A DNA stretch of 45,691 nucleotides from an uncultured Nitrososphaerota archaeon (GCA_963799845.1 CAWCYI010000009.1:1-45691); one strand, 5' to 3'; counted from the stretch's first letter, positions 18,859 through 27,294 are shown. Notes: a model not told the origin generated them from the sequence alone. Program-made: numbers and translations.

Positions 18859-20325
18859 CTACTTTTTATCATCGCTTTCTAACTGCCACTTTATACCATC
18901 TTTGGCTACGAACTCTGCTGCCTCCTTGGGCCCCCACGTTCCCGGTTTGTAGCTATGAAGTTCAGGGTTTCCCTTCACTTGGTTTGCTATGATTGGGTCA
19001 ACGAAGGACCAGGCTGATTCAATTTCGTCGCTCCGCGCAAAAAGGGAAGGATCCCCGTGAATCGCATCCAGTAGAAGGCGCTCGTATGCATCGGGAAGGA
19101 CATGTTCACCATAGCGAAACCTCATGTCCGCGGAGATCGTCTCCATTCCCATACCGGGCTTTCGAGTTTCAAATTGAAGTTGTAGCCCTTCATCAGGATC
19201 TATGCAAAGGACAATGCGATTTGGTTTGACGTTTGCATCTTCAGGAAAGAGCAAGAGTGGAACCCGTTTGAACTGGATAATTATCTCTGTTGTCTTTTCA
19301 GCCAGTTCCTTTCCAGTTCGCACGATAAAGGGCACGCCTTGCCAACGCCAATTATCCACGTACATCTTCAAAGCTACAAAAGTCGGAGTATGGGAATCTC
19401 TTGCGACGCCTTCTTCTTTTTTATAGCCAGCGTACTGACCCCATATGGTATCTTCAGCAGGAACACGATGCCGGAAAGCCTTTAGTACTTTCACCTTTTC
19501 GTCTCGCAACATCTTTTCGTTGAAAGCCGCCGGAGGTTCCATTGCTATTAGGGCGATTAGCTGCAGCAAATGGTTTTGCAGCATGTCGCGCCCCACTCCA
19601 GCTTTGTCATAGTAGCCCGCCCGGTGTTCTACCCCGACTATTTCGGCGACAGTGACCTGGATATTGTCGACATAATTTCGATTCCAGAGCGGTTCAAATA
19701 TCGCATTCGCAAACCTAAACGTCAGAATATTTTGTACTGTCTCCTTTCCTAGATAGTGATCGATGCGAAAGATCTGGCTTTCATCAAATTCAGAATGTAG
19801 CTCGTCATTGAGCAAACGTGCGGTCTTTAGATCTCGTCCGAACGGCTTTTCGATTACGATGTCGCGCTTTCCCGCATTCTGTTTGTTCAGCCCTGCCTTC
19901 CCGAGCTGCTTTATGACCGGCCGATAAACGCTCGGCGGAGTCGCAAGATAAAATAGATAATTTACCTCATCTACGGAACCGCCATCGAGTTGTGAGAGTT
20001 TTTCTTTGAGATTGACATAGGTCTTGGGATCGTCATATTCTCCCTGTAGATAGTGGAGGCGCTTTGAGAATTCTTTCCACTCTACAGAATCTTTCGGCTT
20101 TATCCGCGAGTATTTCTTAATGCCCTGATGCACTTTTTCTCTGAAAGAATTGTCATCAAATTCGCTGCGTGCGACTCCGACTAGCTCGAATTGCTTTGGA
20201 AGGAGATCCTCTGAATTTAGGCTGTAGAGTGCAGGCACAACCTTCCTGTTTGTCAGATCGCCGGAGGCACCGAATACGACTATGACAAGTCTGTCCGGGC
20301 TGGAGACCTTCTTCACTTCATTCAT
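18859..20325 (-). CDS. zwf: Glucose-6-phosphate 1-dehydrogenase (bacterial type)
   Basis: [54 protein letters not shown]. Confidence 0.97.
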
Positions 20326-20390
20326 CGGTTTCCCACCGTGCGCTGGCAAGGCGAGCAAAAATCGGCCGGGAAACCAAGGCCCAGCCTATC

Positions 20391-21302
20391 TTACTCATGC
20401 TTTACTTCGTGGCCGCCGAATTCATTTCGCAAGGCTGCAAGGAGCTTTGCTTCATAACTTTCTGATTGCCTGCTCTCAATACGTCTAATCAAAGACAGAG
20501 TGATGATTGGCGAAGGGACGTTTTCATTCAACGCTTCGATTGCAGTCCATCGGCCTTCACCGGAATCTGCGACCCAGCCTTTGATATCATTGAGATCTGG
20601 ATCCTTTGAAAGGATGTCAGCGATAAGGTCAAGGAGCCATGATTTCACCACGCTACCATATCTCCAGATTTCCGAGACTTGATGGAGATCTAAGTCGAAC
20701 TCTTTCTTTGCCTTGAGGATCTCAAATCCTTCGGCGTATGATTCCATCATGCCATATTCTATTCCATTATGTACCATCTTGACGTAGTGACCAGAACCGG
20801 CCAACCCGACGTGCCCCCACCCCTTGTCCGGACCGGGTGCAAGGGTCGCAAAAATGGGTCGCAGCCGCTCAACAGGCCCATCATCGCCGCCGATCATCAT
20901 GCTGTATCCATCCACGAGTCCCCACGTTCCGCCGCTCGTTCCTACGTCGATAAAGTCGAGCCCTTTTGCCTTTATTTTCTCTGCCCTGCGAAGCGAGTCA
21001 GTATAGTGCGAGTTTCCGCCGTCGATGATGAGATCGCCCTTTGAAAGGACTCCGAGCAAATCATCTATCATCTTTTCAGTGGCGTCCCCTGAGGGAACCA
21101 TCACCCAAACAGCTCTTGGCTGGCTGAGTTTCTTTACCATCTCCTCGAGCGTACCTACGGCAGTGATATTATCTTCCTCCTTTTCAAGAGCGTATGCCTT
21201 CTCAGCGGTGCGGTTATAAACGACGACTGTGTGCGCGTTGCGAGCCAGCCTACGGGCAATGTTTGCACCCATGCGCCCTAAACCGATTATGCCTATTTCC
21301 AT
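20391..21302 (-). CDS. gnd: 6-phosphogluconate dehydrogenase, decarboxylating (short type)
   Basis: GLGRMG, IDGGNS, DVGTSGG, GHYVKMVHNGIEYG, DSGEGRW, LRNEFGGH. Confidence 0.96.
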   Translation of the reverse strand: MEIGIIGLGRMGANIARRLARNAHTVVVYNRTAEKAYALEKEEDNITAVGTLEEMVKKLSQPRAVWVMVPSGDATEKMIDDLLGVLSKGDLIIDGGNSHYTDSLRRAEKIKAKGLDFIDVGTSGGTWGLVDGYSMMIGGDDGPVERLRPIFATLAPGPDKGWGHVGLAGSGHYVKMVHNGIEYGMMESYAEGFEILKAKKEFDLDLHQVSEIWRYGSVVKSWLLDLIADILSKDPDLNDIKGWVADSGEGRWTAIEALNENVPSPIITLSLIRRIESRQSESYEAKLLAALRNEFGGHEVKHE

Positions 21303-21320
21303 TATTCCCTTCTACTTCCT

Positions 21321-24175: not shown

Positions 24176-24195
24176 TTTTTGCCGTCAACTCACAA

Positions 24196-26234
24196 TTAAT
24201 CTGTATTCTTCTTTCTTTTCATTACGTCCTTTGCTACCTGAACAACGTGCTCGGGTGTGAAACCGAATTTCACAAAGAGCACCTCGGCCGGTGCACTTTT
24301 ACCGAATCCATCTATGCCCACGACAGCCCCGTCGAGCCCGACATAGTGTTCCCATCCTCAGCTTGATTCCAGCTTCGACTGCTAGACGTGACCTAACCTT
24401 TGAAGGAAGAATGGCTTCTCGATAGTCCTCTGTTTGTTTGTCGAAGAGCTCCCAGCTCGGCATCGAGACAACGCGAGAAGAGCGACCTTCTTGAGCGAGT
24501 TTCTTCCCAGCCTCGAGTGCCACGTGAACCTCGGAACCTGTCGCGATCAAGATAATGTCTGGCACCTTCCCGCTTTCTGACTCCCAGAGGACATATCCTC
24601 CGTGCTTCAGCTCCTCAGATTTGGCATACACACTCCGGTCAATTAGAGGCAAATTTTGTCTGCTTAGAATCAGTGTCGTTGGGCCCTTGTTGTTGCGCAT
24701 CGCCATCCGCCATGCCCAAACAGTCTCAGTCGCATCTGAAGGCCTGATAACCGTCAGGTTCGGGACTGCCCTTAGTCCCATCAACTGTTCAATGGGTTGA
24801 TGTGTCGGACCATCTTGACCGAGTCCTATGCTATCGTGGCTGAAGATGTAGATTACCCGTATTCCCATCATAGCGGCGAGCCTCATTGGAGGTCTCATAT
24901 AATCAGAGAATGTGAGAAAGGTCGCAGTGTACGGAATGATTCCCCCGTGAAGAGCCATGCCACCCGCGATGGCTCCCATTGAATGCTCCCGCACTCCGAA
25001 ATGGATGTTATTACCGGCATATTCATGCAAACCGAAATCACCATAACCGAATAGGGTTGTCTTTGTGCTGCCTTCAAGATCAGCCGACCCTCCTATCAGG
25101 GCGTGGACGTGCTTTACTAGAGCGTTGAGAACTTTACCTGAGGCATCCCTAGTCGCCATATCCTCTGTGCCAGGAGGGAAGAGATCATCAAGTCCTTCCT
25201 CCCAATTTGATGGAAGGTCTCCGCTAATCTGGACTTTGAGCTGCTCACTGAGATCTGGATACTTTGAGGAGTAATCCGAAAGCATACGTTCCCACTCGTC
25301 CTCGGCTTTCTTTCCTCTCAGCTATAGCCTTACGTGTGTTAGACAGTACATCGTCCGGCACGTAGAAAGTCTTGTCAAGAGGCCAGCCGGCCTTAGCCTT
25401 CGTCGACTTGACGGCCTCATCAGAAAGGGGATCACTGTGCATCTCTGAAGTCCCTTCATCGGGAGCACCGCGGCCTATGAGGGTGCTGCAAATGATTAGG
25501 GATGGTCGTTCTTTTTCCCTCTGCGCTCTGTGAATAGCCCCTTCAACAGAATCCGGTTCATCGCCACTGATCGGGCCAAGCACCTGCCAGCCATACGCGC
25601 TAAACCTCCGAGCGACATCTTCCCTAAAGTCGATGTCTGTACTCCCTCCGATTTGAGTGCCGTTGTCGTCGTAGAGATAGATTATCTTCCCGAGATGCAG
25701 CGTGCCGGCAAGGCTCGCCGCCTCACTTGCCACTCCTTCTTGTAAGTCACCATCTGACGCTATTCCGTAGGTGTAATGATCGAAAATATTGAAACCCTCG
25801 CGGTTGTACTGATCGGCAAGCCAGTCCTCTGCTATCGCCATTCCGATCCCATTAGCAAATCCCTGACCCAATGGGCCTGTCGTCACTTCGACACCAGGAG
25901 TAACTCCGTACTCGGGATGACCCGGAGTCTTGCTCCCCCACTCTCTAAAGTTTCGCAGTTCATCCAAGGAGAGATCGTAACCAGTAAGAAAGAGTAGAGA
26001 GTAAAGCAATGCAGAGGCATGACCCGGCGAAAGAATGAATCTGTCGCGATCTATCCAGCTAGGGTTTTTAGGATTGTGTCTTAGGATCCTGTTCCAGAGT
26101 GCATAGGTCATAGACGCCGCGCCCATCGGAGTCCCAGGATGCCCGGATTTTGCCTTCTGCACCATATCAAGTGATAAGAAACGGATCGTGTTGATGCAGC
26201 GCTGGTCCAGTTCGATATTTTCTTCGACTTGCAT
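24196..26234 (-). CDS. tkt: Transketolase (single-chain bacterial type); frameshifts near 25310 and 24360
   Basis: [65 protein letters not shown]-terminus FGKSAP...* ends at 24196. Confidence 0.95.
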
Positions 26235-26235
26235 T

Positions 26236-27294
26236 CTAACTTCGCACCTTTTCTTCTATGGCTAATTCCACTGACGGGCTCGCCATGTGCAGTCCATAAT
26301 GGGCTGCACCCAGAAGTGCAGCTCGAGGAGTTAGGATAATTCTTACAGGCATCCGAGAGAGAAGCTCTGACATCCTACCTTTTCTCAGAAACGATTTCAT
26401 GAATCTGCCATCAGTTAGGGCGGATCTGATTCGCGGCGGAATACCGCCACCAATGTACACGCCATTTGTAGCCAAGACCTTGAGTGCCAAGTTTGCTGCC
26501 TCTGCTCCCAAGATGGAGATGAAAATGTCCAACGTTTTCACACAGATTTCGCAATCTGGATCCTTAGAGAGCGCTGCGTGCGTAATGAGCGGTGCCTGGT
26601 CTTCGGATTCAGAAATTTCCTTTACGAGAAGTGAGCAAGATTCAGTGCGTGTTACCTTCTCATCATGAAGATATGAGAAAATTTCTTCCAGTCCGGGTCC
26701 TGAGCAAACATCTTCGTAACTGACATGCTTGAACTTTTGCTTAAGATATTCGAGGAGCCCTGCTTCAGAATCGCTAGTTGGCGCGAAATCACAGTGTCCC
26801 CCTTCCGATGCGTGCGAATCGTATCGGGTACCGTTCCAAGTAAGAAAGGCTTCTCCCAGTCCCGTACCAGGAGCTATCACGGCTATCGCGCCCTCAGTGA
26901 TAGATTTTCCTTCGTTCAGCAAAAGCGTTTCATCCCTCTTTAGAAATGGCACATAGTACGCGGTTGCTTGAACATCGTTTAACACGTGAACGCTCGAGAA
27001 ATCTAAGGCCTGCGCGAGCTCCTTCCCATCTATCACCCATGATAGATTCGTGATCTTTGAGCGTCCTCGAATAACCGGCCCAGCGACGCCGAAACAAGCA
27101 TGCTTTACGGATGCTCCGCTCTTTTCGAGAAATTCGCGGACCAGACGTTCGAAACTTGGGTATTCACTGCTAGAAAACGTGTCCTCGACGACGACGGAGA
27201 TAGATCCGTTGTTTAAGGAGAAAATAGCAAGCTTGGTTTTAGTACCGCCAATGTCACCGGCTAGTAATTGTATAGCAGAGTCCCCCTGAATCAC
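26236..27294 (-). CDS. glk: Glucokinase (bacterial Glk family)
   Basis: [45 protein letters not shown]. Confidence 0.95.

Follow-up and report, generated by a model that had tools for sequence, protein, structure and literature searches.

The stretch of DNA analyzed here, which we call the window, is 45,691 nucleotides long and carries at positions 18,859 to 27,294 a compact set of bacterial-type sugar genes, glk-tkt-tal/pgi-gnd-zwf. It constitutes the entire contig C9 (45.7 kb) of a nine-contig, 4.60 Mb archaeal metagenome-assembled genome (MAG). We consider it likely that these genes form an intact operon in the chromosome of a heterotrophic member of the Nitrososphaerales, that the operon is an ancient acquisition from bacteria, and that the breaks seen in two of its genes are assembly errors. 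Throughout, G000 denotes the host genome, C4 to C8 others of its contigs, X1 to X3 soil sequencing runs and L0xx the individual loci used for comparison.

ORF calling fills 18859-27294 with seven open reading frames (ORFs) on the minus strand, which represent five genes separated by gaps of 0 to 32 bases when tkt is counted to its true end. The gene list and coordinates of the original prediction, made from the sequence alone, are correct as judged by ORF calls and by Pfam and NCBIfam scores. The features of the operon are as follows.

26236..27294, minus strand: glk, Glk-family ATP-glucokinase, the first gene of the operon; GTG start immediately behind an in-frame stop.
24196..26234, minus strand: tkt, unsplit bacterial-type transketolase; in two frames in the window, with extra bases at 25319 and 24359.
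21321..24175, minus strand: tal-pgi, bifunctional transaldolase/phosphoglucose isomerase fusion; in two frames in the window, with extra bases at 22753 and 22758.
20391..21302, minus strand: gnd, short-chain 6-phosphogluconate dehydrogenase of 303 amino acids; NF007161 and TIGR00872.
18859..20358, minus strand: zwf, canonical glucose-6-phosphate dehydrogenase; the gene caller's ATG start gives 488 amino acids.
27295..27609, minus strand: upstream non-coding region of the operon; 27339-27495 recurs on C5 at 79-80% identity.

Each product is an unambiguous member of its family. Glk scores 280.6 bits against TIGR00749 (cut-off 225.45) and 345.8 bits against PF02685, where it covers profile positions 1-311 of 314 and is thus full-length. 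Zwf is likewise full-length and contains both domains, with 601.8 bits against TIGR00871 (cut-off 400.6; positions 3-484 of 486), 219.7 bits against PF00479 and 366.4 bits against PF02781. Its 488-residue product carries GASGDL at residue 19, EKPFG at 159 and RIDHYLGKE at 187, corresponding to what we take to be the canonical Zwf motifs: dinucleotide-binding GxxGDL, EKPxG and active-site RIDHYLGKE. Gnd reaches 443.3 bits against NF007161 (cut-off 271) and 381.6 bits against TIGR00872 (cut-off 297.2), and its C-terminal RNEFGGH fits the RX2FGXH motif given for short-chain 6-phosphogluconate dehydrogenases in bioRxiv 10.64898/2026.01.21.700892; size, score and motif all place it in the short-chain class.

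The two remaining genes are each read in two pieces in the window. Transketolase comprises an N part at 25245-26234 and a C part at 24299-25285, in overlapping frames, which match positions 3-300 (416 bits) and 309-608 (363.3 bits) of the 654-position TIGR00232; the scan was made on the pieces rather than on the read-through protein, and each piece alone falls below the cut-off of 682.25 bits. In the same way, the tal part (22499-24175) and the pgi part (21321-22721) of the fusion match positions 4-485 (603.9 bits) and 500-945 (511.4 bits) of the 949-position NF007080, each alone being below its cut-off of 712 bits. When the extra bases are removed, tkt becomes a 685-codon frame whose residues 8-684 align in one piece, at 70% identity, to the orthologue in G001, a genome of the same genus, which identifies it as an unsplit transketolase; it bears SDGDLQEG, a variant of the thiamine-diphosphate motif common to the orthologues. 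The tal-pgi frame of 953 codons aligns in one piece over residues 1-943 to the bacterial locus L021, as expected of a single polypeptide.

The host genome is 86.7% complete, with an estimated contamination of 4.87% and a GC content of 47%. Archaeal ribosomal protein S28e is found on C6, and a search of the genome did not find bacterial L20. A 16S fragment matches the archaeal model with 459 bits over 493 positions versus 535 bits over 865 positions for the bacterial model, so that the archaeal match is better per position. The aEF-2 protein encoded on C7 is 92% identical to that of 'Nitrososphaerales archaeon JOPF053' and, in a partial match, to that of 'Thaumarchaeota archaeon SubAcS9-71', and all of the 50 relatives found for it are archaeal. 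SubAcS9-71 (GC 46%) is listed in PMC10640624 among the 'heterotrophic terrestrial Thaumarchaeota', which are described there as devoid of amoA and carbon-fixation markers and as possessing carbohydrate-use genes. The amoA model PF12942 has no match in G000, in a search that was silent in control genomes too. The host is apparently a Nitrososphaerales soil archaeon close to this group, living on organic carbon. The window contains no tRNA, no Rfam family and, among its 37 ORFs scanned against Pfam, no archaeal marker; the claim that the operon lies among archaeal marker genes is not borne out inside the window, and the archaeal identity therefore rests on the remaining genome.

Bacterial ancestry of the operon is indicated by both phylogeny and gene order. 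Among GTDB species representatives, none of the best 80 loci for Zwf is archaeal; they are mostly from Anaerolineae and show 48-61% identity. A larger protein collection contains closer relatives, at 84, 80, 75, 68, 67 and 65% identity. We built a Zwf tree of 65 rows by IQ-TREE quick search, with SH-aLRT as the only support measure and two distant sequences from archaeal MAGs as the root. The window's Zwf falls in a clade of 16 rows (SH-aLRT 99) that is also present in a FastTree tree of 202 rows. Four of the other 15 members are labelled, each as 'Nitrososphaerales archaeon' (four NCBI records), and 11 are without label. This clade nests within bacterial rows, for the most part of Chloroflexota, with Syntrophaceae as well. 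Furthermore, in the bacterial MAG locus L021 the five genes stand in exactly this order, glk-tkt-tal/pgi-gnd-zwf, and partial synteny is seen in at least 10 Chloroflexota loci, an argument for the block having been transferred whole. With copies nested in bacterial sequences and a gene order common to bacteria, the bacterial origin put forward in the original prediction is supported: the operon probably passed from bacteria into the archaeal lineage in a single piece, and its nearest labelled bacterial relatives are Chloroflexota and Syntrophaceae-like.

The operon is also found in relatives of the host. G001 holds it whole, on two contigs (this genome is unpublished, and its Zwf is identical to a protein under a public accession), and G009, from another genus of the family, holds glk-tkt-tal/pgi up to a contig end. 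Amino acid identities between G000 and these two genomes are 52-53% for glk, 70% for tkt, 64% for tal-pgi, 64-77% for gnd and 57% for zwf. The family copies group together in all five gene trees, with support of 100 for tkt, 100 for tal-pgi, 96 for gnd and 98 for glk. Since aEF-2 is 87% identical between G009 and G000, such divergence of the operon is plausible under vertical descent. Base composition agrees: compared with 1,734 long ORFs on the other eight contigs, the operon pieces have a GC of 0.475-0.521 (31st to 87th percentile) and a GC at third codon positions (GC3) of 0.476-0.543 (21st to 57th percentile), which extends to the whole genome the earlier remark that their composition is close to that of the flanks.

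A remnant on another contig adds to this picture. At C5:54314-54738, a segment 79% identical to 27339-27495, upstream of the operon, abuts one that is 74% identical to 21197-21442, a region made of the start of gnd and the end of pgi. This is the remnant of a second, decayed copy of the locus, from which glk to tal-pgi seem to have been deleted. Host-like composition, the operons of G001 and G009, the family clades and this decayed copy all favor the older, ameliorated horizontal acquisition that had been proposed. On this comparative evidence, the transfer would predate the divergence of the two operon-carrying family genera, and the operon would since have taken on the composition of its host.

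The alternative that survives best, which we still regard as unlikely, is recent and separate acquisition by single species, or passage among soil archaea, instead of inheritance from a family ancestor. It draws first on the patchy distribution of zwf. Within the family, 2 of the 13 genomes, counting G000, have a zwf above the cut-off. At class level there are 4 among 401, scattered through three families (G000; G409, from another family of the order; G044 and G067, from a third), and a survey of 401 genomes of the phylum yields G000 alone. These surveys are samples of incomplete MAGs, in which a gene not found is not necessarily absent; the other family MAGs are 58-96% complete and in 110-470 contigs, so that misses are to be expected. 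Secondly, the Zwf proteins of G000 and G001 fall in different sub-clades. Their 57% identity is low for a single genus and below that of tkt, so that a later replacement or transfer within the lineage may have occurred. Insertion sequence (IS) elements are moreover abundant in G000. Finally, in the trees of tkt and tal-pgi the family copies have G409 as their sister, a hint of transfer between archaea. In these Nitrososphaeria MAGs, contigs G409:C1 and G067:C7 carry tkt-tal/pgi-gnd-zwf and G044:C7 carries pgi-zwf; the G409 operon contig has weak matches on either side to a congeneric genome, and the zwf of G067 and G044 are only 38% identical. Against a recent arrival, however, the composition of the operon is fully host-like, four genes place the copies of G000, G001 and G009 in a single clade, and the divergence of the operon (67-71% nucleotide identity) resembles that of flanking genes between the same genomes (66-75%).

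It is less probable still that a bacterial contig, for instance from Chloroflexota, was misbinned into an archaeal MAG, and that the operon represents ordinary bacterial metabolism. Such an error is suggested by the window being a separate 45.7 kb contig without archaeal markers, by its recognizable genes being mostly bacterial-type sugar enzymes, by the contamination estimate of the MAG and by the exclusively bacterial nature of the nearest GTDB Zwf loci. The window is nevertheless tied to the genome by several elements, of which the following are annotated by Pfam.

7826..9002, minus strand: IS element with helix-turn-helix (HTH) and DDE_3 transposase; copies on main contigs.
36685..37889, minus strand: IS element with DDE_Tnp_1 transposase, in two frames in the window; copies on main contigs.
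13241..15695, plus strand: GH15 glucoamylase/glucodextranase (PF09137, 336.4 bits; PF00723), broken by an extra base at 15160.

The first IS element has copies at 99.4% identity on C4 and 99.6% on C8, and others at 83-88% on C6, C7 and C8. The second is represented on C6 by three copies at 99.3-99.7% and on C4 by two at 96.8-98.3%, with four older ones at about 84%; near-identical copies of the two elements thus span C4, C6 and C8, and the older 84% copies lie on C6, the contig with S28e. Flanking genes of C9 (GH15, a molybdopterin oxidoreductase, a cyclase and a 652-amino-acid ORF) recur at 65-86% nucleotide identity among 12 other species of the family, in up to five MAGs. The tetranucleotide distance of C9 to the genome mean is the genome median (rank 50 of 98 among 45-kb chunks). 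As to the operon itself, the closest bacterial Zwf reaches only some 60% identity, versus 75-80% for the proteins labelled Nitrososphaerales, and bacterial-type glk, nagB and phosphofructokinase genes are also present on the 2.1 Mb contig C4. In addition, the end of C9 (43342-45691) overlaps the end of C5 (63107-65444) in reverse orientation, over 2.35 kb at 96% identity with mostly indel differences; C9 and C5 therefore probably join, across a fragmented phosphoketolase (XFP) gene. The possibility that the contig is chimeric or bacterial had been raised at the outset, and composition, IS copies, family flanking genes and the lack of joints over 10001-30000 all speak against it.

The state of tkt and tal-pgi was addressed with public short reads. 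Four DNA runs from one soil study hold 93%, 54%, 24% and 7% of the operon's sampled words, and contigs of these runs were compared with window positions 10001-30000. The runs may include the source sample, which is the right comparison for deciding whether the extra bases are real. Loose contig ends resemble what we assume to be Nextera adapter, which marks the runs as short-read data. A single base of the window is omitted at each of 15160, 16981, 18200, 18575, 24359 and 25319 in X1 and X2 (one contig each), and at both 22753 and 22758 in contigs of X1, X2 and X3. There are no joints over 10001-30000, where depth is even (4.6-8.7 in X1). Once these eight bases are deleted by script, tal-pgi is open over 953 codons, tkt over 685 and GH15 over 818, as are the gene of a molybdopterin oxidoreductase/cytochrome b protein over 502 and that of a cyclase over 252; the read-through tkt and tal-pgi products each align to their orthologues in a single piece. 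Insertion errors made in the long-read assembly account for the frame breaks in tkt and tal-pgi, which are present in the letters of the window and absent from the short-read contigs, and the operon is therefore intact. That the operon is a decaying relic with real frameshifts and a silent pathway is hardly credible: the window letters do split both genes, and a clearly decayed second copy exists on C5, but independent short-read contigs from two or three samples are free of the extra bases, the restored tal-pgi frame has the expected length (953 codons for a 949-position profile), both halves of each gene still score strongly, and three unrelated flanking genes within 20 kb are broken by errors of this very kind, an indication that the artefact affects the whole assembly.

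The eight insertions lie within 20 kb and break five genes; none is in a homopolymer, and several are in CTCAGC/GCTGAG-like contexts. This suggests a systematic long-read error throughout the MAG, possibly linked to a methylation motif, and a completeness of 86.7% with only nine contigs fits such an assembly-wide indel problem. Eight one-base insertions in 20 kb of a long-read MAG are also a practical warning, in that they mimic pseudogenes.

The operon does not replace the archaeal set of sugar enzymes of its host. A native cluster at C6:103040-107292 encodes a PfkB-family sugar kinase, the N part of transketolase (275 amino acids), rpe, the C part of transketolase (331 amino acids) and a TalC/Fsa-type transaldolase (228 amino acids). 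Archaeal transketolases are usually split, as the original prediction stated, and the native one of G000 indeed is. With a split tkt, rpe and a short tal already on C6, the operon is therefore an addition. Genes for the intermediate steps are present as well, rpiA on C4 (202.7 bits; cut-off 126.4) and rpe on C6 (220.8 bits; cut-off 212.6). A second Glk-family glucokinase, 53% identical to the first and sister to the operon glk clade, is located next to nagB at C4:494995-496786.

From the families represented, a pathway may be proposed as follows. Glucose would perhaps be released by the GH15 enzyme (13241-15695), a candidate supplier encoded two genes away from the operon on the opposite strand. 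Glk is predicted to phosphorylate glucose with ATP, and Zwf to oxidize the resulting glucose-6-phosphate to the lactone, both activities being assumed from family membership. The lactone would open spontaneously or through some lactonase, after which the short-chain Gnd would decarboxylate 6-phosphogluconate to ribulose-5-phosphate. Both dehydrogenase steps should yield NAD(P)H, either as NADPH or as NADH. The rpiA (C4) and rpe (C6) products could then feed Tkt and Tal, and the Pgi half of the fusion would return fructose-6-phosphate to glucose-6-phosphate, so that the pathway could run as a cycle.

Beyond the scattered occurrence of zwf and the low identity of Zwf within the genus, several findings weigh against the reading of an intact operon of ancient bacterial origin in an archaeal chromosome. 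In the Zwf tree, the sister clade (14 rows) is mixed: among 11 rows looked up, the label is Bathyarchaeia archaeon for one cluster and Acidoferrales bacterium for another, and the donor is therefore not pinned to one group. The trees of tkt, tal-pgi, gnd and glk were made with FastTree only, from loci fetched through zwf, which biases their bacterial sampling. The G001 and G009 contigs (8.5, 3.5 and 5.1 kb) carry operon genes only, which leaves binning and similarity to the window as the grounds for calling them archaeal. C9 itself is not physically joined to a contig with archaeal markers. The four short-read runs all come from a single study and may include the window's own source sample. 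No 6-phosphogluconolactonase was found in G000 with TIGR01198, a search that covered this lactonase family in a genome 86.7% complete; the sole match, at 78.6 bits versus a cut-off of 124.45, was rejected as it corresponds to nagB (TIGR00502, 309 bits). Finally, a bacterial-type phosphofructokinase (PF00365, 352 bits) is encoded at C4:756047-756931, near an IS copy, and the operon is thus not the sole route for glucose; together with the native tkt-rpe-tkt-tal cluster, this means that it adds a route.

Similar operons with a fused Tal-Pgi are found in bacteria, at L021, L005, L030, L064, L069 and L077 (Chloroflexota, Syntrophaceae-like and other MAGs). They are composed of the same five families, contain a short-chain Gnd and a fused Tal-Pgi in all cases, and are 48-70% identical to the window at the amino acid level; several display the sub-order tkt-tal/pgi-gnd-zwf, and L021 the full order. 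Unlike these, the window's operon has an archaeal host and the composition of an archaeal genome, and belongs to its own clade with proteins labelled Nitrososphaerales. The haloarchaeal oxidative pentose phosphate pathway likewise leads, in archaea, from glucose-6-phosphate to ribulose-5-phosphate. Its glucose-6-phosphate dehydrogenase (G6PDH), Azf, is an unrelated enzyme of the SDR type, acting along with Gnd (Pickl and Schonheit 2015, as cited in PMC8506132 and PMC9700705), whereas the window encodes a canonical Zwf, in an operon with glk, tkt and tal-pgi.

Closer to the host, F420-dependent G6PDHs are reported in Gagatemarchaeaceae and Aigarchaeota (PMC10640624, PMC4681859). These non-ammonia-oxidizing relatives within Thaumarchaeota resemble the host in having a route from glucose-6-phosphate to the lactone, but their enzyme belongs to another protein family than the window's Zwf and uses another cofactor. 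Where PMC10640624 suggests carbohydrate use via the pentose phosphate pathway, the F420-dependent enzyme is the only G6PDH it mentions. In G000, 43 stretches on C4 and C6 match the F420_G6P_DH model, none at the cut-off (best 278.8 versus 420 bits); they belong to the very large family of luciferase-like F420 oxidoreductases. As for the native archaeal non-oxidative branch, also present in G000 on C6, it performs the same tkt and tal chemistry with a differently organized set of genes: the native tkt is in two genes around rpe and the native tal is short, whereas the operon has a single tkt of about 680 amino acids and a tal fused to pgi. The two sets are 28-37% identical.

Reviews continue to present the oxidative branch as lacking in most archaea, haloarchaea relying on an unrelated dehydrogenase (PMC9700705, Introduction; PMC8506132, Discussion). 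According to the Introduction of PMC9700705, many archaea are without both branches of the pentose phosphate pathway, and Thaumarchaeota are credited with the non-oxidative branch only. The Discussion of PMC8506132 recalls that classical G6PDH homologues were long thought absent from archaea, and cites Maturana et al. 2021 for G6PDH and 6-phosphogluconate dehydrogenase in Thaumarchaeota, Pacearchaeota and Asgard archaea. Full-text searches of the literature returned no description of the operon in Thaumarchaeota; the supplements of PMC10640624 possibly list such genes for the terrestrial heterotrophic clade. The enzymes are ordinary members of their families; it is the host that is unusual. 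Even so, the surprise is limited: bacterial metabolic genes are common in mesophilic archaea, and NCBI already names such proteins in several Nitrososphaerales MAGs.

What the operon provides is a concrete case of supplementation or replacement at the level of a pathway, by transfer, in the poorly known heterotrophic sisters of ammonia-oxidizing archaea. It presents a canonical zwf-gnd pair within a complete operon, tied to an archaeal genome, recurring in relatives and standing beside the host's split transketolase set, and it offers enzymes for work on cofactors and kinetics. One may go further and propose that the complete operon is an inherited, lineage-wide trait of heterotrophic terrestrial Thaumarchaeota that has spread among soil and sediment archaea. 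This is a tentative view, to which we give somewhat less than an even chance. It leans on the related operon of G409, from another Nitrososphaerales family, and on the Bathyarchaeia-labelled protein of the neighboring Zwf clade (contigs up to 3.68 Mb; label not confirmed). Compared with GTDB, that protein (P0021) has only bacterial loci among its best 80, at 65% identity or less. If true, a standing oxidative branch would be documented here for the first time in archaea other than haloarchaea, and a canonical Zwf for the first time in any archaea, which would help explain the sugar-based life of these relatives of ammonia oxidizers. We also considered a broader 'all-archaeal super-clade' of about 35 Zwf rows, but abandoned it because of the Acidoferrales bacterium label on one cluster in the sister clade.

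Other parts of the window deserve brief mention. The GH15 gene is present in five family relatives at 65-80% nucleotide identity, and has a paralogue on C6. Positions 9016-11490 contain two ORFs of 169 and 652 amino acids without Pfam match, the longer of which is kept in two family relatives (66-71% nucleotide identity). At the other end of the window, 38616-45691 encodes a bacterial-type triosephosphate isomerase, an NTP-transferase, a class I fructose-bisphosphate aldolase and a phosphoketolase. A DNA search found none of these genes in 12 family relatives, and the triosephosphate isomerase gene has a GC of 0.589 and a GC3 of 0.686, at the 99th to 100th percentile of the genome; these genes thus look later-acquired than the operon.

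Searches for expression signals gave no result above chance in 18000-28500, with 13 sigma-70-like sites versus 11.0 expected from shuffles and 10 terminators versus 9.3 in shuffles, and no convincing archaeal TATA element was seen by eye in 27295-27609. In that same upstream region, one X1 contig diverges from the window after 27485, at the edge of the segment repeated on C5, and continues with 255 letters unlike the window; it could be the other copy of the repeat or a strain variant.

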